Source: Candidatus Bathyarchaeota archaeon (GTDB lineage: Archaea > Thermoproteota > Bathyarchaeia > Bathyarchaeales > DTEX01). From it: a stretch of DNA of 64,000 nucleotides. A program made the translations under genes and the position numbers. Position 1 is the stretch's first letter; each line of letters begins with the position of its first letter. The stretch is taken from NCBI GenBank assembly GCA_963714275.1, contig CAVQNT010000006.1, positions 22,591-86,590 on the forward strand, written 5' to 3'. Below, piece after piece: positions 8,987 through 50,819 of this stretch. Below the pieces are notes generated by a model. The model saw nothing but the letters and a program-made list of their open reading frames with translations, was not told the origin of the DNA and searched no databases.

Positions 8987-9775
8987 TCAAGATTCTAGAT
9001 CGAAGGTTATTTTGATTCGTTCTGAATGTGTGTAAACATTAAATCTTCTTCCTCTAACGAAACCAATAAGGGTTAAGCATCTTTTTTCTGCAACTTCTAT
9101 GCCTTTGTCGGTGCTTGATGTAAGTGAAACAATAACGGGGACATCAACATTTACAGCTTTACTTACGATTTCTGAAGACAGCCTTCCAGTTGAGGCAAGG
9201 ATCGTTTGTTCCAGATTGATGCGTTTCAGGGCAGCTTCCCCTATGACCTTGTCTATTGTATTATGTCTGCTAATGTCCTCTGAAAAAACCAAAACCTCAC
9301 CCTTACTGTTAAGCAAGGCTGCAGCGTGCGTGCCTCCGGTTCTTTTAAAAATAGCTGCCTTAGAGTCTAAAATTTTCGCAGCATTCAGAATAGTTTCAGG
9401 ATTTAATACAAGATTCTGAAATTTCTTTGGTTTCTTCGCTTTTTCTTCCTTTTTTGTTCGGATGACATTTTCGTATAAAAGTGTGACGATTACTTTTTCT
9501 TTTTCGAAACGTAGTTGTAAGATTTCCTCAGGACTATTAATTACTCCTTGGGTCAACAGGTGTCCGACTATCAACTCTCTAGTTTTACTGGGAGAACACG
9601 TGAAAACAGTGGAGGGCTTGTTGTTAATATACAATCGTATTGTCGTTTCTGTAACAACCTCATCTTGAACATGTTCAAATAATCTTTTTCCGAGGTTAAC
9701 CCTTATGATTTCATGTGTTGTTGTTACTTTTCCTCCGCCCAGGTCCTTTTTTCCCGTATTCATACTATCTGACAC
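8987..9775 (-). CDS. fdhD: formate dehydrogenase accessory sulfurtransferase FdhD-like
   Basis: TGGTHAAALL, ISRHNTIDKVIGEA, and the C-terminal tail SSEIVSKAVNVDVPVIVSLTSSTDKGIEVAEKRCLTLIGFVRGRRFNVYTH. Confidence 0.7.
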   Translation of the reverse strand: MSDSMNTGKKDLGGGKVTTTHEIIRVNLGKRLFEHVQDEVVTETTIRLYINNKPSTVFTCSPSKTRELIVGHLLTQGVINSPEEILQLRFEKEKVIVTLLYENVIRTKKEEKAKKPKKFQNLVLNPETILNAAKILDSKAAIFKRTGGTHAAALLNSKGEVLVFSEDISRHNTIDKVIGEAALKRINLEQTILASTGRLSSEIVSKAVNVDVPVIVSLTSSTDKGIEVAEKRCLTLIGFVRGRRFNVYTHSERIKITFDLES

Positions 9776-11392: not shown

Positions 11393-11511
11393 TGGTGCGG
11401 GGAGCGGGATTTGAACCCGCGAACCCCTAAGGGACAGGCTCCTGAAGCTTGCGCGCCCTTGTTTGTGGTTGTTTGGGTTCTGCGCCTTTGACCTGGCTTG
11501 GCGACCCCCGC
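11393..11511 (-). tRNA. tRNA-Leu(CAG), class II, with a ~31-nt intron inside the anticodon stem and encoded CCA
   Basis: Minus strand reads GCGGGGG TC GCC AAGCCAGGTCAAA GGC G CAG [AACCCAAACAACCACAAACAAGGGCGCGCAA] GC TTCAGGA GCCTG T CCCTTAGGG GTTC GCGGG TTCAAAT CCCGC TCCCCGC A CCA. Removing the bracketed segment gives a perfect CAGGC/GCCTG anticodon stem, loop UUCAGGA and a long variable arm. Confidence 0.75.
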
Positions 11512-15332: not shown

Positions 15333-16196
15333 TCATTTGAGCGTTCCAGTGAAGAAAGAAATCATTCCAAAAAGCATCCAGACCAATACGAGATTCTTTG
15401 TGCGTCTTGCGTTCTCTCTGGAAGAATTCTTGATAAGCATGATTGAAGAAACCGAAAATCCTGCGTCTGCAACTATAACAAAGGGAATATACCATATGGA
15501 AAATATGCCAAGAAGCCACGGAACCAAGCTGAGAAATACGGCGGAAAAAAAGAAAAATGAAGACACGACTGAAGCGACTTTGCTTCCGTAAATGACCATG
15601 ATGGTTCTCATTTTCCTTGCCTTGTCGCCTTCATCATCCACAATTCCCTTCGCAACCTCGCGTCCAGTGTTCGACAAAAATGCCAAAGCCGAGAACAGCA
15701 AGACCTTTAAACTGAAGCCTTGACCAACAATGAAGCTACCGTAGATGAAGGGAATTGCGACGCATGCGCTGACAAGGAAATTTCCAGGCAACCCAGTTCT
15801 TTTTCCTTTTGTCGCGTACGTGACTGAAACCGCTAATGAAATTGTCACTATTAATATGGGCATAAGGGAAGGCGGATTGACGAAGGCTGATGCCGTTATA
15901 CCTACAAGAATGAGGATTAAGGCGAAAATTATGCTTTCTCGACGTTTAACAGTTCCGCTTGGGAGTGGACGATGTGGCACGTTTATTTTGTCAATGTCGT
16001 AATCATAATAGTCGTTTATTGCCATCGAGGCGCCTGTAAGCGTGAATGCTGTAGTGAATCCTAATAAAAGGGTCAGGGCAACATTTGTAGAGAACGTTTC
16101 CGCCAATGCCAAAGAAGCGCCAACAATGACAGCAAGACCCATCATCAGCCCGTTAATCGGACGGAGAAGCCTAATGAAACCTACGACTCTGCTCAT
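15333..16196 (-). CDS. UbiA-family prenyltransferase, digeranylgeranylglyceryl phosphate (DGGGP) synthase-like
   Basis: 287 aa, polytopic. LLRPINGLMMGLAVIVG, NDYYDYDIDKINVPHRPLPSG, and a second Asp-rich region KGIVDDEGD. Confidence 0.75.
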   Translation of the reverse strand: MSRVVGFIRLLRPINGLMMGLAVIVGASLALAETFSTNVALTLLLGFTTAFTLTGASMAINDYYDYDIDKINVPHRPLPSGTVKRRESIIFALILILVGITASAFVNPPSLMPILIVTISLAVSVTYATKGKRTGLPGNFLVSACVAIPFIYGSFIVGQGFSLKVLLFSALAFLSNTGREVAKGIVDDEGDKARKMRTIMVIYGSKVASVVSSFFFFSAVFLSLVPWLLGIFSIWYIPFVIVADAGFSVSSIMLIKNSSRENARRTKNLVLVWMLFGMISFFTGTLK

Positions 16197-16292: not shown

Positions 16293-16310
16293 TGGATACA
16301 AAAGCATCAA
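16293..16310 (-). repeat. copy A of the repeated motif TTGATGCTTTTGTATCCA
   Basis: The plus strand reads TGGATACAAAAGCATCAA. It lies ~96 nt upstream of the minus-strand DGGGP synthase start codon. Confidence 0.9.
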
Positions 16311-16405
16311 TAAACTTCACATTTTTTCATCGTGTCAAATAGTTTATCTTATTTGTGACTACCGCAAAAAGAGACTTTTGGTAAACCAAGAGAATTCCGA
16401 ATATT

Positions 16406-17671
16406 CTAATCATACGATGGTCTCGAAGTTGCAGTCACATTCACGGTTGTTGTTTCCCCCGATCTCCAAACAGTAAGAGTGATGGTTTGTCCAGGCGACA
16501 CGTGTTCCTCAATATAGGCAGTCCATTCAGCAATTGTTCGAGTTGGATGCCCATCGACAGCCAGCACAATGTCTCTCGCCATATACTCAGTTTGACCTTC
16601 AGGATCTGTCGTTTCAACTACGCCTTTTAAACCTGCCTGTTCCGCAGGATAATTTTTAATTACATCCCAAACGAGTAATCCGGACTGGAAAGGCTCAACA
16701 TTAAGAATATTATCATCCTTTATTACTTCTGGCGTTAACTCAAGAAGGTAGAATCCAATAAAAGGGTGACTATAGAAGCTTTTCTCAATTATTGATGCTA
16801 CAACACGTTTAACAATGTTTGAGGTTATGGCGAAGTTGAAACCGTAAGATGTTCCAGCGTTCGTTATGCCAACAACGTTTCCATACAAATCTAAAAGCGG
16901 ACCTCCAGAGTTTCCAGGAGCCAAAGTAATGTCCAGCTGAATCACGGGAACCGTTATAGGCACTTCGTCTAACTCGATGATTTTGTTTACTTGGCTTACG
17001 TAGCCTGAGGATAAGCTTCCTGTGAGTCCAAGCGGATTACCTATAGCGATGACTTGTTGTCCAACATAAAGGTCTGAGGAGTTTCCCAGTTTTAGTGGCT
17101 TCGCTTCTGGGGGTGAACTGGGCACCATCAAAACTGCGACATCGGAGTATGCGTCTATTCCCACAAGCGAGGCACGTCTTCTTGTTCCATCATAGAACTG
17201 GACATTAATTTCCGTCTCACCTTCTACGACATGCCAATTTGTGAGAATCATGTTTGTGCTGTTGAAAAGGAATCCTGACCCTTGTCGTGTGTTTGTGGTT
17301 ATAACGACAACAGACTGGTAAGTTGACTGATAAATTTCAGCTGGTGTCTGATTCACAATATGGGATAAAGACTTTCCTAGCTCAGAAACTTTTGCTTCCA
17401 ACTGGCTGAGTAAGGATCTTATCTCTGTAACGTTACCCAATGAAGTCTGGTTAATCTCCCCCAAGGTTTCAGTCAGGTTTGCCAGTTCAGCAGCCACGTG
17501 TTGTTGTGCCTGAATATTATTATAAATCAAATAAGTGTTAACGCTGGACAGGGCTATTGCGACAACACATAAGATGGCCAAAAATTTAGTTACTTTGATA
17601 GGCATCATCCATTCCCTCTTATATTGAAACGAGCATTGATGCTCTAAAACTTTTTCATTGATGCATGCCAA
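16406..17671 (-). CDS. membrane-anchored HtrA/DegP-like trypsin-fold serine protease with C-terminal PDZ domain
   Basis: N-terminal TM helix and coiled coil. Catalytic triad contexts TNWHVVEG, DVAVLMV and GNSGGPLLD, plus a PDZ-like tail. The likely real start is at the internal MMPIK. Confidence 0.75.
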   Translation of the reverse strand: MACINEKVLEHQCSFQYKREWMMPIKVTKFLAILCVVAIALSSVNTYLIYNNIQAQQHVAAELANLTETLGEINQTSLGNVTEIRSLLSQLEAKVSELGKSLSHIVNQTPAEIYQSTYQSVVVITTNTRQGSGFLFNSTNMILTNWHVVEGETEINVQFYDGTRRRASLVGIDAYSDVAVLMVPSSPPEAKPLKLGNSSDLYVGQQVIAIGNPLGLTGSLSSGYVSQVNKIIELDEVPITVPVIQLDITLAPGNSGGPLLDLYGNVVGITNAGTSYGFNFAITSNIVKRVVASIIEKSFYSHPFIGFYLLELTPEVIKDDNILNVEPFQSGLLVWDVIKNYPAEQAGLKGVVETTDPEGQTEYMARDIVLAVDGHPTRTIAEWTAYIEEHVSPGQTITLTVWRSGETTTVNVTATSRPSYD

Positions 17672-17682
17672 ATGGACGGATT

Positions 17683-18127
17683 TCAGGAATTTACAAGTTC
17701 TGAGCTTTCATCATTGTCACGGACAACGTAGTTATCGATTTTGTCCGCAACCTTAAAGACCCACTTGTAAGGAAATTTGCCTGCTAAAACTGCTTTCTTT
17801 TTGTCGTAAACTTCGAACATGCCAAGAAAGTCAACAAGCTCTTAACCTGCTCTTGCTTAAAGTATACTCTGTCCGAGCTTGTGGACTTTACTTCAAAAGC
17901 AAAAACACAGTCACCCTTAGCCGCAAAAACATCAGGCAACGGCTCAGAACTCGGAGCAGAAACAGGAACCCTAACAGCTTTGAACCCTTTAACTCTGAGC
18001 TTTTTACAAGGTCCCTTTCTGCACGGTAACCGTGTACCCTTATCCGCCTGCTTTCGCTGCTTGAAAGCTTTCGACCCTTTCGTTTGCTTTTGGGTTTTGT
18101 TTTTTCAGCTATGTCTCTAAGAGACAA
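17683..18127 (-). CDS. hjc: Holliday junction resolvase Hjc-like; frame broken in the N-terminal third
   Basis: Joined frames give ...GYRAERDLVK..VKGFKAVRVPVSAPSSEPLPDVFAAKGDCVFAFEVKSTSSDRVYFKQEQVKSLLTF..., matching the Hjc E...PD...ExK layout. Confidence 0.55.
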
Positions 18128-18138
18128 AGTCTTCGCCT

Positions 18139-18442
18139 TTAGCTTTGCGGTTCTTCCAGTTGACGAATGGCCAATCGGACAAGGTCTTGGAGCCAGTCTG
18201 AAAAAGTAGGCGCATTAGCGTACTTTTGATATTTTTTTCTGTACGGAACCTTTAAGATCATGTGAAGGTTAATCATTCTTCGAACATAGTATTTTGCTGT
18301 TGACCTTGGGATTCCAGACTTCACTGGCAAGGTCTCCGCTCGTAAACACCATTTTTAGCCTAGAATATGCTCTTAAAACATCTGCTGGAAAAGGCATGGA
18401 CAAATTTACTATCTCAATTAAATCTTTACTTAACTGAACCAT
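18139..18442 (-). CDS. small winged-helix/HTH protein; frame broken near 18330
   Basis: MVQLSKDLIEIVNLSMPFPADVLRAYSRLKMVFTSGDLA joins KSGIPRSTAKYYVRRMINLHMILKV. Confidence 0.4.
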
Positions 18443-18753
18443 TTTTTAGCCTTCTTTTCGGTTCAAAAATATGACTTTCATCCTTATAAGACATTCTGAT
18501 GATTTTACACAAAATAATATTTTGATACAAACTAAAATTTATGTAATATTCGTGATCTGGACTGCATTGGACGAGTCTTTTTTTTCATTTTTGCTTAGTG
18601 CAGTGGATTTCTATTAAGTAAAAATCATTTTTATATTTTATTCACGCTTTTGGACTAATTTAAAGTCTATGAAGTAATTATAGAAAATAAAATTTTAATG
18701 ATGTGATATGGACTTACTTTTAGCCCATATTTTTGAAAAATTTACATAATTAA

Positions 18754-19428
18754 TTAAAAATGCATTATTTGGTTCAGATAAGCTGGCATTGATGTGAGAA
18801 AGTCTCTTAGTTGTAACACGGGGACTATGGGTACGCCTTTGTGAAATTTTTGGTTTCCAGGCGCCAGAGACAAAATCATCGGCACAAAATGTGCATGTTT
18901 CCAGTTTCCCATTCCAATCTTGTCGTTTATGGACTTGGATGCCTTGGAAAGGTTCTTGGTTCTTTCAGCCTGCATTTCAGCGGCTTTTCTGCTTCCTGAT
19001 CCGCTCCATCCGTGATGCCAGTGTTTGCAATCAGCGCACACGATTAGTGGTTCTTTAAGCGCCAAAATGTCGATTTCCCATCTTCGATTTACCCAGGTGA
19101 ATCTGAAATGTTTTTTAGTTTCATAATTATTGGCTTTGAACGCTATGATAGAGATATCTTCGAATTCAAGCCAAGTCAACGAATCACAAATTCTTTCAAT
19201 ATCCGCTCCTTGCTTCACAATCTTCATAACCAACTTTAAACGTTGCTCAGAACTGATACTTACTGACCTTGATGAAGGAGCATAGGTTACGAGGTTAACG
19301 TGTTTTCTCAAAACTTCCCTCACGATCTGAACTGGAACATGGGCTTCTTGGCTAATTTCTTCTAGCTCCGTTATGCCCTCTTTTGTTAGTTTAAGCAGCG
19401 AAACCAGAACTCCACGTTCAGCGAGCAA
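18754..19428 (-). CDS. hypothetical protein with N-terminal wHTH and C-terminal restriction-endonuclease-like (PD-(D/E)xK) region
   Basis: 224 aa. ITELEEISQEAHVPVQIVREVLRK (HTH-like), then WEIDILALKEPLIVCADCKHW (D...DxK). Confidence 0.35.
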   Translation of the reverse strand: MLAERGVLVSLLKLTKEGITELEEISQEAHVPVQIVREVLRKHVNLVTYAPSSRSVSISSEQRLKLVMKIVKQGADIERICDSLTWLEFEDISIIAFKANNYETKKHFRFTWVNRRWEIDILALKEPLIVCADCKHWHHGWSGSGSRKAAEMQAERTKNLSKASKSINDKIGMGNWKHAHFVPMILSLAPGNQKFHKGVPIVPVLQLRDFLTSMPAYLNQIMHF

Positions 19429-19544
19429 TGTAAACCGAATGAATATTAGTTATGAGGTTGATAAAAATATTTAAAAACGGTGAGACTTCAAATCGAAGGC
19501 AAATTGTTCGTTTTGTTTTTAAGTAGACCATTATTGGAGGGGAA

Positions 19545-19567
19545 TTGTTGATGCTTTTGTATCCATT
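19545..19567 (+). repeat. copy B of the repeated motif (23-mer TTGTTGATGCTTTTGTATCCATT)
   Basis: Exact 23-mer shared with copy C. It lies ~98 nt upstream of ATG 19665. Confidence 0.9.
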
Positions 19568-19664
19568 TTAAACTTGACCACCAAAATTTTCAATGGACAT
19601 TATAAAATATTTGTAGATAAACAAATTTATTAAAAACATGAGATTATTCAATTAATAAGGTGAA

Positions 19665-20174
19665 ATGAAAGTGAAATCGTTAATGGTCAAGGCGAAGAAG
19701 CTGACAGCAAATTCATTCTTCAAGTTTGGCAAGGTGGCTGACGCTCACACAATTCCGCCCCTAGTCGAAACTGAAAATTTAAAGTTCTGGACAACAATCG
19801 CAACCTACACGGTCGATGGCGAAACAGAAATAGCACTTTGCCACGTAAAAAAAAGCGTTGATTCTGTTGGATTATTAGAGAGACATGTTAAAACACCCGA
19901 AATTCTCGTACCAATCAAAGGCGACTTCATATTGCCTGTGGCTCCTGCTGGAAACCTCCAAGATCCAACATTAACCCCTGAAGCTTCCGATGTAGAAGCC
20001 TTCCTTGTTCGTTCAGATCAAGCAGTAGTAATGGAAAAGGGAGTTTGGCACACTGCGCCAGTTCCAGTACATAAAGAGACTTCGTTCTTCGTAATCTTCA
20101 AGAAGGAAACCACTAAACAAGACGCGGTCTTTAAAAAGCTTAAAAACGATCAAACCGTCAAAGTCATAAGATAG
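19665..20174 (+). CDS. ureidoglycolate-lyase-like cupin protein
   Basis: 169 aa. LTANSFFKFGKV, LERHVKTPEILVPIKGDF and GVWHTAPVP parallel the AllA-family pattern (ErHp...fiP...WH.P). Confidence 0.5.
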   Translation: MKVKSLMVKAKKLTANSFFKFGKVADAHTIPPLVETENLKFWTTIATYTVDGETEIALCHVKKSVDSVGLLERHVKTPEILVPIKGDFILPVAPAGNLQDPTLTPEASDVEAFLVRSDQAVVMEKGVWHTAPVPVHKETSFFVIFKKETTKQDAVFKKLKNDQTVKVIR

Positions 20175-20223
20175 AACAATTAAGCATTTACAGTTAAATC
20201 ATATTCATTAAAAAATACATTAA

Positions 20224-21498
20224 CTATTGTCGGATGTTTCCTCTTCCTAAACCAAAATACTTAATCGTTGTCAAGTGCTGGACGCTCATTGGTCCACGCG
20301 CATGTATTTTTTGGGTGCTTATGCCGATTTCAGCGCCTAGACCGTACTGGCTGCCATCCGTAAACCGGGTTGAAGCGTTCCAGTAGACAGACTGCAGCGT
20401 CTACGCGTCGGATGAACGTTAATGCTTTATTGAAGTCCGATGTAAGGATGGATTCGGAATGTTTGGTTCCATACGTGTTTATATGGGATATAGCTTCTTC
20501 GAGCCCCGCGACAACTTTGACGCCAATGATGAGGTCCAAGTATTCTGTGTACCAGTCTTCCTCGGTTGCTGGCACAGCATCCGCCACTATCCTGCAAGTT
20601 TCTTCGCATCCTCTGACCTCAACACCGTGGTCTCGGAGCGACTTCACAATCTTTGGCAGAAATAACTCAGCGACATTTCTATGCACTAATAGTTTTTCTG
20701 TTGCGTTGCAGACCCCGGGTCTCTGGCACTTGGCATTGATGATTATGTCGACTGCACGGATTAAGTCTGCGTCATCCTCAACATAAATGTGGCAGTTACC
20801 CACCCCAGTCTCAATAACTGGCACTTTGGAATTTTCAACCACAGCCTTGATCAGGTCCGCTCCGCCTCTGGGAATCAGCACGTCCACGTAGTCCCGCATC
20901 GTCATCAGCTGCGTCAGCTACACTTCTATCTGTAACAGGAATAACCTGAATAGCCCCTTCAGGAATCCCCGATTCAACAGCTGCCTTATTGAGCACCTTC
21001 CCTATCATGACATTTGAATTAATGGCGTCAGACCCGCCCCTAAGTATCACAGCGTTACCTGATTTCAGGCAAATTCCCGAAGCATCAGATGTAACATCAG
21101 GTCTAGATTCGTAAATTATGGCTACCACGCCTAGTGGAACCCTAAGCTGACCAATGATTAGTCTGTTTGGCAGTGTCCACGTTTTCACTATTTCGCCGAT
21201 TGGATCAGGAAGCTGAGCAACTTCCCGTAGGCATTTTGCCATGTTTGATATCCTTTTCTCGTTAACCAAAAGCCTGTCGAGAAGAGCTCTCTTTCACTCT
21301 TTTTTTGCGTGAGGCTTCCATGTCTTTTCTGTTCGCTTCGATTATTGCTTCAGCGTTTTTTTCTAATGCATCCGCCATATTGCATAGAGCCCTATTCTTC
21401 GTTTCGGTTGAAAGTTGCGCCAATGTACATGAGGCTTGCTTTGCCTTCTTGCACATCTTTAAAACCAGGTCAGTCATGTTTTCAAGCTTCCTTTTCAT
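20224..21498 (-). CDS. proA: gamma-glutamyl phosphate reductase; at least 3 frame breaks
   Basis: Pieces 21262-21498, 20835-21269, 20330-20905 and a tail [37 protein letters not shown]. Contains [14 protein letters not shown] and [19 protein letters not shown]. Its start overlaps the proB stop. Confidence 0.8.
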
Positions 21499-22627
21499 TC
21501 AAGTGCATACGTTTTCTTGTAACAGTCTCTTTTTGCCTAACGTAACCCAAAGCTTTCTTTACGCTCGAAGTATTCATGCCTTTTATCTGATTTATCTCGT
21601 CACTTGTATAGTTTGCTGTACCCCTTCCGAATTCGTCGCCTTCTGGACCTACGAGACTAACCACATCGCCTACTTGAAATTGCCCGGAGACCGCTTCAAT
21701 TCCGACGGCCAGTAGACTTGCTCCTTTCAAAATTGCGTTCCTAGCCCCTTCATTAACGTGGATTTGACCCTTAACTCCTGCACCATAGCCTATCCACCGT
21801 TTTATACCCGGAAGACCTTTATTGTCAGGTATGAAGAGTGTGCCGACATTTTTTCCGTCAAGAATATCGAAAAGAATGTTTGGTCTACGACTATTAGCGA
21901 TTATAAGGGGGATGCCGCTACGCATTGCGATTTCAGCTGCCTCGAGCGTTGTTTTCATACCGCCTCTTCCAAGACGGCTTTTACCTTCCGTGGCATTCCT
22001 TATTTCAGGCGTAATTTTCTCTACAACCGGAATCAATTTAGATTCAGGTTTTTCTGGGTTGCTGCTGTAAAGACCATCTACTGTTGTAAGAATAATCACA
22101 AGGTCAGCTTCAACAGCATTCGCTATTAAAGCTGAGAGTATAGAATTGTCGCTGAAGTTAACCTTGTATCCCTTCATAACCGGGATAATTTCGTTAACAG
22201 AAGTCACGTCGTTCTCATTAATAATTGGAACAACGCCGATCTGAAGCAGCCTGTCGAGAACATTGCAGGTGTGAATGTATGAAATCCGGTTAGAAAGGTC
22301 ATTCTCGGTCAACAGAACCTGTGCTACCTTTAATCCATGATGCCTGAAAAATTCCCTGTAATGCGACATGAGAATACTTTGACCTGTGGCAGCGCACGCC
22401 TGCCTGAAAATGATGTCTTTCGGGTTGGGTCGTACGCCCAATTCAGCGATTCCTGACGCTATTGCACCTGAGGTCACGAGTATGACCTTGTTTCCTTGCT
22501 GAATGATTTTTGCGATGTCATCAACAAGTCGCTTCACCTCTACAATGTCTAGGCTTCCGTCTTCTTTTGTGAGGCTTCTTGTTCCAACCTTGATGACAAC
22601 CAATTTTCCAGTCATTATGTGTTGCAC
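21482..22627 (-). CDS. proB: glutamate 5-kinase with C-terminal PUA domain
   Basis: 381 aa. VIKVGTRSLT, LVTSGAIASG, IPIINENDV, and PUA-like GDVVSLVGPEGDEFGRGTANYTSDEI. Confidence 0.85.
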   Translation of the reverse strand: MQHIMTGKLVVIKVGTRSLTKEDGSLDIVEVKRLVDDIAKIIQQGNKVILVTSGAIASGIAELGVRPNPKDIIFRQACAATGQSILMSHYREFFRHHGLKVAQVLLTENDLSNRISYIHTCNVLDRLLQIGVVPIINENDVTSVNEIIPVMKGYKVNFSDNSILSALIANAVEADLVIILTTVDGLYSSNPEKPESKLIPVVEKITPEIRNATEGKSRLGRGGMKTTLEAAEIAMRSGIPLIIANSRRPNILFDILDGKNVGTLFIPDNKGLPGIKRWIGYGAGVKGQIHVNEGARNAILKGASLLAVGIEAVSGQFQVGDVVSLVGPEGDEFGRGTANYTSDEINQIKGMNTSSVKKALGYVRQKETVTRKRMHLNEKEA

Positions 22628-22708
22628 CCAAATCCCTAAGGAATGAGAAGACTTTTAATCTTTTTTATAACCTTATTCGAAAGATTTCATTGACTGGTTC
22701 AGGAGTAT

Positions 22709-22731
22709 TTGTTGATGCTTTTGTATCCATT
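22709..22731 (+). repeat. copy C of the repeated motif (23-mer TTGTTGATGCTTTTGTATCCATT)
   Basis: Identical to copy B. It lies between the divergent proB start (22627) and the small integrase gene. Confidence 0.9.
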
Positions 22732-22911
22732 CATATAAATTTTTACCAGTCACCATTTTGCGATAAATCTGCAATCGCAAATGGCTCATAAATATGACCG
22801 AAAACGCCATAAATTCCGAATCACCAGAAAAAGAGACTTGAAATCCGAATATTTTTTTCCTTTTATATCAATAATAGGTAAAATATATAATGCCAATCAA
22901 CGTATTCTTCG

Positions 22912-23487
22912 GTGATTAAATTGCCTTGGTATAGGACATCTGGAAAACTGATGACTCCAATATCTGATGAAGATTTCATAAATGTTATGACTGATGGTTA
23001 TTTTGTAAAAAGAAAACATAAAGGATTCATAGCCCTTCTCTACTATTCTGCTGTTAGAAAAAGAGAGGCTTTGAGAGCCAAAAAAGATCAATTTAGGATT
23101 CTTAATGATCGAGTAATTTTCGAAGTCGGAAAAAGATTGAAACATGGCTTACAGACTCCACCTTTGAATATTCCTCTATCTGCTCCTTACGTTGATGAAA
23201 TAGCTTGGAGTATCATGAACACAGAACCGAATCATGCAGTATGGCCTTATAGTTCAAAAACGGCTTACAACATTGTTAGAAGAATTTTTCCCGGATATCC
23301 CCATTATTTTCGTCTTAACCGTATAACCACCTTTTTTGAAGAAGGTTGGACCATTGCCCAAGTTAGAACATGGACAGGATTAAGTTTGAACGCATTAGAA
23401 TTTTATGTTGGATTAGTGGATGTCAAAAGAATGGGCGAATCTCTTGGGAGGAAGTACAAAGAAGCTTCTGCAAATGAGAAAAAATGA
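22912..23487 (+). CDS. short tyrosine recombinase/integrase (catalytic domain only)
   Basis: 191 aa. YYSAVRKREAL (Arg I), YPHYFRLNRITT (HxxR), and LNALEFYVG (Tyr). Confidence 0.7.
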   Translation: MIKLPWYRTSGKLMTPISDEDFINVMTDGYFVKRKHKGFIALLYYSAVRKREALRAKKDQFRILNDRVIFEVGKRLKHGLQTPPLNIPLSAPYVDEIAWSIMNTEPNHAVWPYSSKTAYNIVRRIFPGYPHYFRLNRITTFFEEGWTIAQVRTWTGLSLNALEFYVGLVDVKRMGESLGRKYKEASANEKK

Positions 23488-23539
23488 GGAAGAATGGTTA
23501 ATGGCTGATTACTTTTACTCAATAATAAAACATTAAGGT

Positions 23540-23585
23540 ACATTGGTGAAATGAAACGTTAATATAATATTAATATCACCAATGT
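23540..23585. repeat. perfect 10-bp inverted repeat ACATTGGTGA / TCACCAATGT around an AT palindrome (TTAATATAATATTAA)
   Basis: Read directly from the sequence, ~50 nt downstream of the integrase stop. It could be a hairpin terminator or a protein-binding site. Confidence 0.6.
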
Positions 23586-23699
23586 CACCCAATTGTCTAA
23601 ATAGGCATTTGTAAAGACGAGTTTATGCATAGTTTTGCCTAGATCTGATGCATAGAAGTAACCAATCGATTGTTGTTTCGACATTCTGATTCGAGTTTT

Positions 23700-23719
23700 T
23701 GGATACAAAAGCATCAACA
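23700..23719 (-). repeat. copy D of the repeated motif
   Basis: The plus strand reads TGGATACAAAAGCATCAACA. It lies 85-115 nt upstream of the MBL-fold hydrolase gene. Confidence 0.9.
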
Positions 23720-23802
23720 TAGCGCATGGTGATATGTTGATTTTCTTTTTTTCTATTTCTTTTCAGTTGAGTTAGTGATTCAATACTTATTTACTGGTAA
23801 TC

Positions 23803-24638
23803 TTGTCTTATTGTCTAAAGGTGTCATTAAAGATGAAAACTGGAGAATGGTTTAAAACAAGACGCGTAAGCAGCGGAACAATAGCAATAGATGATCACGG
23901 TTCCGATGTAATGTACCTCATCACCGGAGACAAGAAATGCCTTCTTATAGATACTGGTTGGGGGATTGGCGATCTTCCTAAGTTAATATCCTCGTTTTCA
24001 TCTTTGCCCTTAACGGTAATGAATACTCATGGTCACCCAGACCACACATACGGGAACAGTGTATTCAATCAAGTTCGCATACACGAGGCTGACAAATATT
24101 TCATCGACAAGCCTTCAAGTGCTGAATCAAAAAAGTGGATCGTGGAAAACGTTCTACCGAAACCGTTACCCAAAAACTTTACCCCAGACACGTGGGCTGC
24201 AAAAGTACCTTCCATACAAACAATTAAGGATAGTCATGTCTTCGATTTAGGCAATCGTCATTTGCAAACTGTTTGTGTTCCCGGCCATACACCGGCTCAA
24301 TCTGCTTGCTAGATCGTGAAAATCGGTTATTGTTCACGGGCGACACAATTCAGAATCCAACTTGGCTTCACCTGCAGGAATCGCTTCCTCTCAGCCAGTT
24401 TCACAAGAACCTGAAGCAGCTGCAATCCAAAATGGACGAGGTTGACTGCTTTCTACCTGGGCATGCAAATCTGAAGACGTTACCGTTACCAAAACAGAAT
24501 ATTAATGAGCTTGTGGCGGGTATCGAGCAAATTCTAAAAGGAAAACTTGTGGGACGAGAAGAAAAAACGTTCGCAGGCGATGGGTTACGCTGCGATTTTG
24601 GCTCAACGGGTATTGTCTACCGACCCAATCATCTATAA
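23803..24638 (+). CDS. MBL-fold metallo-hydrolase; frame broken near 24285-24300
   Basis: LIDTGWG, NTHGHPDHTYGN, VPGHTP then (shifted) GSICLLDRENRLLFTGDT and LPGHAN. The likely true start is ATG 23833. Confidence 0.7.
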
Positions 24639-50111: not shown

Positions 50112-50819
50112 TTGCCACTATATAGGATTCAAAGGGATGATGTGTTGCGTAAAGAAGAGATAGATAGTCTCTTGAATCAATGCACACAAAACTTAATTGA
50201 TGGAAAAAAAGTAATTGAAAAAGAGTATGGATTATTTCCTATCAAGTTTAGCCCACCAATGATTCAATGTTTCATTGCACTTGAATGGCTGTTTGGCAAA
50301 CGGATAAGGGAAACATTAAGGCTTAGGCGTCAAGATGTTTATTGGGATGATGAATACCTTTGTGTCAACTTCACTGTCCAAAAGAAGAAGAATAGAAAGG
50401 CAACTTCAGCACCACAGAGGACTTTAAAGAAAATATCATTAAGCAATCCTTACACACGATATATCATTGACTACGTTTCCACAATAACTGATGGATGGAT
50501 ATTCAAGGGTGCAAAGGGAAGGCGTGAGAAAACAGTATATTGGAAAGATGATGAGGGGAAAATAATAAAGTCCTATCATTATGTTGATGAGGATGAGGGG
50601 CGTTTATCTCAGGAGTATGCCTTACAGATTTTAAAAGCATTGGATATGAACATTTGTTGCCATCTTTTCCGTCACAGTTTAGCAACACTAATGGCTGAAC
50701 ATGAAGCAACCCAAGAAGATTTAATGAATTGGTTCGATTGGGACCGGGTTGATACAGCTCATAATTATGTTAGGGGTGGACCAAGGATGACAAAGAAGTG
50801 GAGTGACAGAACATGGTAA
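50112..50819 (+). CDS. tyrosine recombinase/integrase (short form)
   Basis: FGKRIRETLRLRRQDV (Arg I), CCHLFRHSLATLM (HxxR), and VDTAHNYVRG (Tyr). Confidence 0.7.
   Translation: MPLYRIQRDDVLRKEEIDSLLNQCTQNLIDGKKVIEKEYGLFPIKFSPPMIQCFIALEWLFGKRIRETLRLRRQDVYWDDEYLCVNFTVQKKKNRKATSAPQRTLKKISLSNPYTRYIIDYVSTITDGWIFKGAKGRREKTVYWKDDEGKIIKSYHYVDEDEGRLSQEYALQILKALDMNICCHLFRHSLATLMAEHEATQEDLMNWFDWDRVDTAHNYVRGGPRMTKKWSDRTW

Follow-up and report, generated by a model that had tools for sequence, protein, structure and literature searches.

This analysis concerns a short repeated motif and the small recombinase gene that accompanies it in a 64,000-nucleotide stretch of DNA from a Candidatus Bathyarchaeota archaeon (contig CAVQNT010000006.1), hereafter the window. 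The motif, the 18-mer TTGATGCTTTTGTATCCA, is present in four exact copies within 7.5 kb, named sites A to D (Table 1). Sites A and B stand alone on either side of a block that runs from an HtrA-like protease gene to the gene for a 224-aa protein. Sites C and D are inverted repeats around a segment of about 1 kb that contains a 191-aa open reading frame (ORF), with proB and proA on one side and a metallo-beta-lactamase-fold (MBL) gene on the other. Based on the comparisons described below, the motif is very probably the core of a recombination site belonging to a Bathyarchaeia-specific family of small, single-domain tyrosine recombinases.

Table 1. Positions of the sites, genes, and accessory motifs in the window.
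Feature	Position	Strand	Context
tRNA	11396-11511	-	116 nt, Rfam prediction
UbiA-family prenyltransferase (DGGGP synthase-like)	15333-16196	-	
Site A	16293-16312	-	solo, TATTGATGCTTTTGTATCCA, 19/20 match; exact 18-mer at 16293-16310; between HtrA-like stop and UbiA-family start; kept at the same position in L176 and L206
HtrA-like protease	16406-17671	-	
224-aa protein	18754-19428	-	
Site B	19546-19565	+	solo, exact TGTTGATGCTTTTGTATCCA; 18-mer at 19548-19565, 23-mer at 19545-19567; between the divergent 224-aa gene and cupin gene; kept at the orthologous position in L001, L176, L206
Cupin / ureidoglycolate-lyase-like	19665-20174	+	
proA	20330-21498	-	in pieces
proB	21482-22627	-	
Site C	22710-22729	+	exact 20-mer; 18-mer at 22712-22729, 23-mer at 22709-22731; left boundary (left inverted repeat, IRL) of the ~1-kb recombinase module; TGTTGAT end outward, toward proB; orthologous copies in L001, L009, L011, L217, L147
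191-aa ORF	22912-23487	+	predicted single-domain tyrosine recombinase; AT-rich own upstream region inside the module
Conserved non-coding accessory region	23541-23642	+	inside the C-D module, between recombinase stop and D
Accessory TCACCAA motif	23543-23549	-	
Accessory TCACCAA motif	23576-23582	+	
TCACCCAA	23585-23592	+	
X motif core, GTTTTGCCTAG	23632-23642	+	
Site D	23700-23719	-	exact 20-mer; 18-mer at 23700-23717; right boundary (right inverted repeat, IRR) of the module; outer end toward the MBL gene; orthologous copies in relatives
ATATCACCAT	23726-23735	-	ATCACCA-type motif just outside D
MBL gene	23803-24638	+	in two pieces
Right half-site, TTTTGTATCCAAA	29897-29909	+	~20 nt beyond the NAD kinase gene 3' end
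Second, distant recombinase family member	50112-50819	+	235 aa

The motif is real and far from what chance would produce. With up to three mismatches allowed, 100 dinucleotide-preserving shuffles of the window sequence gave a mean of 0.13 matches, and none of them reached four. No further copy with four or fewer mismatches to the 20-mer was found in the whole 64 kb. This 20-mer, TGTTGATGCTTTTGTATCCA, is common to B, C, and D, while site A starts with TA instead of TG, and B and C share the 23-mer TTGTTGATGCTTTTGTATCCATT. When 140-nt stretches around the four copies were aligned, identity ended abruptly at the motif edges and the flanks were unrelated. As identity is confined to the motif, these are four independent copies of a short element and not duplicated DNA, and a local duplication of flanking sequence is ruled out.

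All four copies are intergenic relative to real genes. The start of the UbiA-family gene is 97 nt downstream of site A, which itself follows the HtrA-like gene stop by 94 nt. The cupin gene starts 100 nt downstream of site B, and 83 nt separate site C from the proB ORF start. For site D, the distance is 84 nt to TTG 23803 or 114 nt to ATG 23833. The window scan and gene map therefore confirm the four intergenic copies, their distances, and the identical 23-mer of B and C that a first-pass annotation of the window had reported, and comparison with the intact orthologue in L001, one of the related loci considered below, favors ATG 23833 as the MBL start, as that annotation had suspected. The similar spacing from start codons that it emphasized is peculiar to the window, since in other genomes the motif can follow a stop codon by 2 nt, lie between convergent genes, or be 24 nt away from a start. 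The annotation would have counted as refuted by a motif that is absent everywhere else and explained by a recent local duplication; instead, the motif occurs in dozens of Bathyarchaeia genomes and its flanks are unrelated. The 13-nt partial match that it noted downstream is real and comprises the right half of the site only. This half-site is kept in L001 as TTTTGTATCCA (about 9550-9575), likewise just 3' of the NAD kinase gene, and the left half at this locus is unrelated to the motif in both the window and L001. It may be a relic or a half-site.

Across the class Bathyarchaeia, the motif is widespread and effectively frozen. The exact 20-mer is present in at least 120 metagenome stretches and in four contigs of a viral collection. 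A degenerate-pattern scan of one genome per species used a pattern that was too loose and drew many chance bacterial matches; about 35 of the 120 stretches listed were from Bathyarchaeia, most with the exact 20-mer. Among 204 non-redundant sites, positions 2-19 are nearly invariant and variation falls mostly on positions 1, 4, 12, 13, and 20, an apparent invariance that is inflated by gathering the sites at three or fewer mismatches. Weak conservation extends beyond the 20-mer, as GRAR-N-TTT at one end and C-T-A-A-A at the opposite end. Counted together with these bases, the site can be read as an imperfect 11-6-11 dyad of about 28 bp (TTTTGTTGATG / CTTTTG / TATCCAcTAAA), and the common variants at positions 12-13 fall in its central six bases. 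Sites inside ORFs of at least 100 aa make up 11% of the total, although such ORFs cover 77% of the DNA.

Solo sites recur at conserved places as well. They are found on either side of proBA, and the "-+" arrangement of A(-) and B(+), about 3.3 kb apart, is repeated in relatives. The ATCCA side of solo sites faces the 3' end of a gene in 51 of 65 cases, a count that includes repeated orthologues and is therefore not made of independent cases. In six loci (L023, L061, L088, L099, L114, and L125), an HdrA-like/MvhD (FlpD) fusion gene of about 810 aa is followed, 2-13 nt beyond its stop, by the 20-mer or a variant with one or two mismatches. The site is 2 nt from the stop in four of these six genomes and has the same orientation as the gene (for example, L099:5635-5654); no recombinase was found within the 8-kb stretch around these sites. 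Three genomes have a variant, TGTTGATGCTTCTGTATCCA, within the coding sequence of a TrmB-family regulator (about 252 aa) and oriented like the gene (L025:3185-3204, L032:3221-3240, and L101:6603-6622). Distances from sites to contig ends, which were 35-300 nt by eye among the metagenome matches listed, followed no clear pattern.

The recombinase family and its paired sites

Sequence and structure prediction both indicate that the 191-aa ORF is a tyrosine recombinase, despite sub-threshold scores with sequence models. In an alignment of 41 homologues of the window subfamily, R49, K77, H131, R134, W154, and Y165 are invariant, and this R-K-H-R-W-Y set is the Cre-type catalytic set; R..HxxR..Y is retained in 16 of 16 representatives across subfamilies. 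The AlphaFold2 model (mean pLDDT 88.6, pTM 0.82) corresponds to the catalytic domain alone, with no second domain, and its top Foldseek matches in the PDB are Cre/Tre, Tn1549 Int, XerH, P2 Int, and XerA (probability 1.0, TM ~0.6 on the query). Pfam PF00589 (Phage_integrase) scored the protein at 13.5 bits (E = 0.064), below its cut-off of 27.1, and NCBIfam and PHROGs models did not match it. The NCBIfam archaeal XerA equivalog, with a cut-off of 220 bits, also gave no match to the window protein and 17-22 bits for two other family members.

About 145 homologues of the ORF were found in a large protein collection, nearly all of them metagenome proteins without a name, 175-205 aa long; the small number that are named come from Bathyarchaeia or are labelled just "integrase". 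An exhaustive profile search of 1.84 billion representative proteins returned 488 relatives at E <= 1e-3 and 61 at E <= 1e-30, indicating a small, lineage-restricted family. Its members are about 175-235 aa long. At least five recombinase subfamilies accompany the same 20-mer, and these are 20-38% identical to one another or mutually undetectable by BLASTP.

Using a family profile searched against all ORFs of the fetched loci, we detected a family recombinase in 33 of the 120 motif-selected metagenome loci (median 5 kb). Of 35 recombinase genes, 34 are no more than 854 bp away from a site, and for 14 of the 35 the distance is 27 bp or less. None of the 85 non-archaeal loci with chance matches encodes a family recombinase. 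An inverted site pair with a recombinase gene adjacent or inside is present in the window (C/D) and in about 45 other loci, with the gene outside the repeat pair in about 20 loci. Two layouts can be distinguished. In the fim-like type 1, the recombinase gene is followed after 5-30 bp by site(+) and, 250-325 bp further on, by site(-) (L014, L100, L155, L167, L172, L204, L218, L222, and L233). The hin-like type 2 spans 1.0-1.5 kb and has the recombinase gene between site(+) and site(-) (the window, L001, L009, L011, L217, L147, L083, L128, L165, L179, L205, and L228). Among inverted adjacent pairs less than 2 kb apart, 46 of 47 are "+-" and one is "-+", which implies a fixed site polarity in which TGTTGAT faces outward and ATCCA inward.

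The interior of the modules is conserved too. A second motif, X (AAAATG-N5-GTTTTGCCTAC-ATAA), is present in nearly every module, and when the interiors of 23 type-1 modules are oriented by X, they align over their full length. The shared blocks include TCACCAA (two to four copies, in both orientations), GGTAATAC, and CAAAGCA. The accessory blocks of the window recur in almost all modules of other genomes. ATCACCA is also present in the outer flank of D in the window, L001, L217, and L009. The interior blocks may represent DNA-level accessory sites, comparable to the IHF/Lrp sites of fimS or to the Hin enhancer.

Other explanations of the interior were rejected. RNAalifold on 21 interiors, with the X-oriented strand only, gave no consensus pairs that would signify a structured RNA, and Rfam had no match for the window module at gathering thresholds, nor for the L100 module at E up to 1. 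Small ORFs in the interior have no conserved position or strand, and the apparent ATG of the X motif runs into stops, which argues against a coding role. A promoter reading out through C, based on the TATA-like TTTATATG just inside C, is given no weight here, as this sequence is not conserved in L001, L217, and L009.

Family members are also found in other settings. A second, distant member in the window scores 34.1 bits with Pfam Phage_integrase and matches a PHROGs integrase. It sits in a low-GC stretch (~48-52 kb; 34-36% GC vs ~42% elsewhere) and may belong to an integrated element; no motif copy and no convincing inverted-repeat pair was found near it. Protein P0050 (contigs L003-L008), 59-61% identical to the window recombinase, is encoded in an integrated element beside a D5_N/DUF5906 primase. 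Next to a glycosyltransferase gene, this element has a larger integrase, the length of which is 378 or 280 aa depending on the contig. The P0050 element contains no copy of the 20-mer, and no inverted-repeat pair was found there.

Comparison of orthologous loci

The order proB(-), recombinase(+), MBL(+) is the same in L001/L002, L009/L010, L011/L012 (proteins 85-88% identical), and L217, the module of which is 87% identical to that of the window in DNA. The C and D positions are occupied in these relatives in the same inverted arrangement, and L001 also has B. L176 and L206 retain A and B around the block from the HtrA-like gene to the 224-aa gene. With L147 and the window itself, the module is at the same proB/MBL place in six loci, with nucleotide identity from ~72% to 87%.

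Within these loci, C and D co-vary at the central positions 12-13 and at position 4 in the left arm. The centers in the window are TTTT at C, D, and B. In L001, both C and D have TTCC while B has TTTT; in L009, both C and D read TCGAT…TTCT, and the B position is outside the contig. Such concerted change of C and D, although imperfect, is as expected of partner recombination sites.

An inverted segment was identified by comparing the type-1 locus L218 with the orthologous L222, L192, L213, and L156. The flanks of L218 are collinear with these at 75-86% identity, with the recombinase-gene side aligning with L222 only and the RimK-gene side with all four. Between the flanks, positions 515-794 of L218, which contain the site pair at 520-790, align in reverse at ~69-74% identity. 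A reversed segment within collinear flanks indicates that an inversion ending at the two 20-mers occurred between related lineages. The placement of X agrees with this: some type-1 modules have X pointing away from the recombinase gene and others have X pointing toward the gene, and in either case 100-130 bp separate X from the site upstream of it, as the mirror symmetry of an inversion would predict.

The locus L147 shows a different type of change at the same chromosomal place as the window. Its left flank and C are 74% identical to the window, and the accessory region, D, and MBL are 72% identical. Between these, about 800 bp with the recombinase gene (L147:344-1145 vs window 22730-23544) cannot be aligned, and the two recombinases are only 21% identical and fall in different subfamilies. 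The sites and accessory region therefore persist while the enzyme gene was exchanged or diverged beyond recognition.

Several observations concern the neighboring genes. Both proA and the MBL gene are split into overlapping ORFs in the window and are intact in L001/L002, L009/L010, L011/L012, and L217 (416 aa and 268 aa, respectively, in L001). Relative to L001, proA has three single-base insertions outside long homopolymers; the splits may represent either gene decay or assembly indel errors. The 224-aa protein has homologues in 25 motif-selected loci (38-79% identity), about half of which lie within 150 bp of a site, with part of this recurrence reflecting conserved synteny (224-aa gene, site, proA, proB, site). 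It has weak Pfam matches to winged-helix and NERD-type nuclease-like domains, and the L128 homologue also matches Mrr_cat; this protein could be an accessory factor. At the left of the window, Rfam identified a tRNA (32.6 bits) that was missed by ARAGORN and is probably an intron-containing archaeal tRNA gene.

Function of the sites and alternative readings

The first-pass annotation had proposed a recombination site, a shared regulatory box, or a miniature repeat-element terminus, and had pointed to C and D as inverted ends around the small recombinase gene. Of these, the recombination site is the reading supported here: recombinases and sites are associated, site polarity is fixed, the catalytic set is intact, and the ends of an inversion in related loci coincide exactly with the sites. 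The sites are better described as inversion boundary sites than as the att-like sites first suggested, since they are inverted and the gene that they flank belongs to a conserved syntenic block instead of an integrated element.

If the enzyme works like Cre, Flp, Xer, and FimB/E, the imperfect dyad of each site would be bound by two recombinase subunits, and two such sites would synapse. Strand cleavage and exchange would take place among the few bases at the center, and the only common sequence variation falls there too. C(+) and D(-) bound an interior of 970 bp that holds the recombinase gene and the accessory region (TCACCAA repeats plus GTTTTGCCTA), and recombination between them would flip this segment between the divergent proB-proA operon and the MBL-fold gene. 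Both of these transcription units point away from the module, and read-through from the recombinase gene or accessory region, into MBL now and into proBA when flipped, is a possibility. Sites A and B have the same central sequence as C and D and are conserved in relatives, making them potential partners. Pairings A x B, A x C, and B x D would produce inversions, while B x C and A x D would produce excisions; no such product was observed among the orthologous loci. A bias toward inversion like that of the shufflon recombinase Rci would protect proBA from B x C excision. We infer binding, cleavage positions, switching in this genome, and effects on neighbor genes; present-day switching of the C-D module in living cells seems plausible, with the balance tipped only slightly in its favor.

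Several findings weigh against recombination at these sites, or against its being frequent. The centers of C and D differ by 1 nt in L217 (TTTT vs TTCT), and the two sites differ at three positions in L011; unequal centers would impair exchange if the enzyme is Cre- or Flp-like. None of the six window-type loci (window, L001, L009, L011, L217, and L147) is an orientation variant, and about 100 orthologous comparisons yielded L218 as the one inverted case and none for A-B or other long-range pairs. With orientation variants nearly absent, frequent unbiased switching is not evident from the assemblies. Of the sites flanked by 2 kb or more of sequence in each direction, about two-thirds have neither a partner nor a recombinase within 2 kb. 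The genes next to modules are housekeeping genes, often convergent on the distal site (saccharopine dehydrogenase, XPF/ERCC4 nuclease, DRG-type GTPase, RimK-like ligase, and molybdopterin oxidoreductase), and no conserved outward promoter was found in the modules by comparison of relatives or by a scan for sigma-70-type sites, a type that is uninformative for archaeal promoters. It is also unusual for near-identical 20-mers to serve recombinases that are as little as 20-38% identical, and another conserved factor could also be reading the 20-mer.

One alternative is an operator, bound by a transcription factor or by a recombinase-like protein that is purely a DNA-binding regulator, with the UbiA-family, cupin, proBA, and MBL genes as a small regulon. 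In its favor, relatives retain solo copies next to the same genes, the site has imperfect dyad symmetry, each of the four window copies is intergenic and 83-114 nt from a start codon, and the preference of the ATCCA side for gene 3' ends (51 of 65, orthologues repeated) hints at a link to transcription. We nevertheless consider an operator unlikely. Distances to start codons vary among genomes, and copies that follow stop codons by 2 nt, sit between convergent genes, or lie inside a TrmB-family ORF are out of place for one; the many copies at gene 3' ends or between convergent genes likewise argue against a shared regulatory box as the main function. The conservation of 18-20 of 20 positions class-wide is far above what is usual for operators, and the fixed-polarity inverted pairs by a recombinase, the site-bounded inversion, and the co-variation of C and D are all unpredicted. 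Another alternative is a small mobile element, in which C-D is an autonomous copy with a tyrosine transposase and the sites are its terminal inverted repeats, the 250-325-bp pairs are miniature derivatives, and the solo sites are remnants. C and D do match perfectly over 20 bp as inverted repeats, with the recombinase as the only gene between them, some short pairs come from contigs, often short themselves, that lack a recombinase gene, and the recombinase gene differs between the modules of L147 and the window at one locus. However, the recombinase is outside the repeat pair in about 20 loci, the module keeps the same proB/MBL place in six relatives at ~72% to 87% nucleotide identity, the outer flanks weakly continue the inverted repeat (GRAR-N-TTT), there is no direct target duplication, and module interiors align across loci as one conserved accessory region. 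The distant homologue P0050 points both ways, as the integrated element that encodes it also has a D5-type primase and a large integrase, but neither the motif nor an inverted-repeat pair. A mobile element thus appears very unlikely, and with it the miniature repeat-element terminus.

Fixed-polarity inverted pairs are also reminiscent of the arrangement of origin recognition boxes. The motif could then be the site of a chromosome-maintenance protein (an origin recognition box, a partition site, or a dif-like site), with the recombinase link secondary. Its class-wide conservation would fit such a role, as would the 11-6-11 reading, which resembles dif (PMC8371274). We regard this as highly improbable, given that several copies per genome cluster within a few kb, while dif is single, and that the family reaches only 17-22 bits against the archaeal XerA equivalog cut-off of 220. 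Module interiors contain conserved sub-motifs instead of AT-rich unwinding elements, and the sites bound an actual inversion in L218.

If the sites are recombination sites throughout the class, they could form a multi-site network in Bathyarchaeia, consisting of one ~28-bp site, at least five diverged mini recombinases, and inverted pairs plus solo copies, for programmed inversions and possibly excision or exchange. We put this forward tentatively, as somewhat less probable than not. Programmed DNA inversion is a classic bacterial route to population heterogeneity, and to our knowledge a genetic-switch layout like the bacterial ones has hardly been described in archaea. In the literature that we searched, neither the motif nor a Bathyarchaeia recombinase with inverted repeats was found described, and a large inverton survey included only 42 archaeal genomes and none from Bathyarchaeia. 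If real, the network would mean that a family of programmed DNA-inversion modules had been defined for the first time in an archaeal lineage, in hosts that are abundant and largely uncultured in sediment. The location among core metabolic genes, rather than surface or defense genes, may signify that the modules, if active, have a different purpose from bacterial phase variation. They also offer a testable archaeal system, with a site of 20-28 bp, a 191-aa enzyme, an accessory region, and dozens of natural variants, among which the centers TTTT, TTCT, and TTCC could serve as compatibility classes. Site and enzyme would be small enough for direct testing, and the combination of a small enzyme and a strict site is of possible interest for recombinase tool building.

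Relation to known recombination systems

The archaeal XerA/dif system and the archaeal integrases (SSV-type, pTN3-type, and IntSNJ2) share their superfamily and chemistry with the Bathyarchaeia family. XerA is a two-domain protein of ~280 aa with a single dif site, whereas the Bathyarchaeia family is single-domain with multi-copy inverted sites; the archaeal integrases serve mobile elements at att sites. The dif site has two 11-nt arms and a 6-nt spacer, and a review of archaeal tyrosine recombinases lists no system comparable to the one described here (PMC8371274). In place of one site per replicon and a two-domain Xer, the window has four sites in 7.5 kb and a 191-aa single domain. The C-D module also differs from an insertion sequence or miniature inverted-repeat element, with the recombinase outside about 20 pairs, no direct duplication, and modules in synteny.

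The Salmonella Hin segment is about 1 kb long, with inverted sites of ~26 bp and the recombinase gene inside. The C-D module shares this layout with Hin/Gin/Cin/Pin, namely a ~1-kb segment, inverted sites, and an internal recombinase gene. However, the window enzyme is predicted to have the fold and catalytic residues of tyrosine recombinases, while Hin-type enzymes are serine recombinases that need a Fis-bound enhancer (PMC3798978).

The R64-type shufflon (Rci/sfx) likewise has several copies of one asymmetric site in both orientations by a tyrosine recombinase gene, and the window, with A(-), B(+), C(+), and D(-) in 7.5 kb, contains at least three sites in both orientations by such a gene. 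For Rci/sfx, it is proposed that site asymmetry restricts the reaction to inversion (PMC11852207). A similar restriction would explain how the direct repeats B and C coexist without deletion of proBA. In contrast to the shufflon, where sfx lies inside a variable pilin coding region and only the spacer and one arm are conserved, the Bathyarchaeia sites are intergenic and conserved in both arms, with no rearranged isomers among orthologous loci. By the stricter definition of a shufflon, with sites in alternative coding segments and many isomers, the window does not qualify.

The closest resemblance in layout for type 1 is to the fim-type switches, FimB/FimE at fimS, IpuA/IpuB at ipuS, and hyxS, where the recombinase gene is also beside a short segment with inverted repeats. 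Fim recombinases are ~200 aa long, and fimS is 314 bp. The invertible segments of fim-type switches are 260-314 bp, compared with 250-325 bp in the Bathyarchaeia type 1. In E. coli fim/ipu/hyx, the sequence around the repeats matters, and several paralogous recombinases act on similar sites (PMC6083910). The Bathyarchaeia modules differ from these in having an archaeal host and a recombinase, at least in the window, that is unmatched above threshold by Pfam, NCBIfam, or PHROGs. The fim-type repeats are 7-16 bp, while the Bathyarchaeia site is 20-28 bp and almost invariant class-wide. The modules have housekeeping neighbors, often convergent, and additional solo sites, with no promoter or regulated surface gene identified. 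Compared with these systems, what would be new here is the host lineage of the site-specific inversion modules, the mini-recombinase family, the unusual degree to which the site is frozen, and the additional solo sites.

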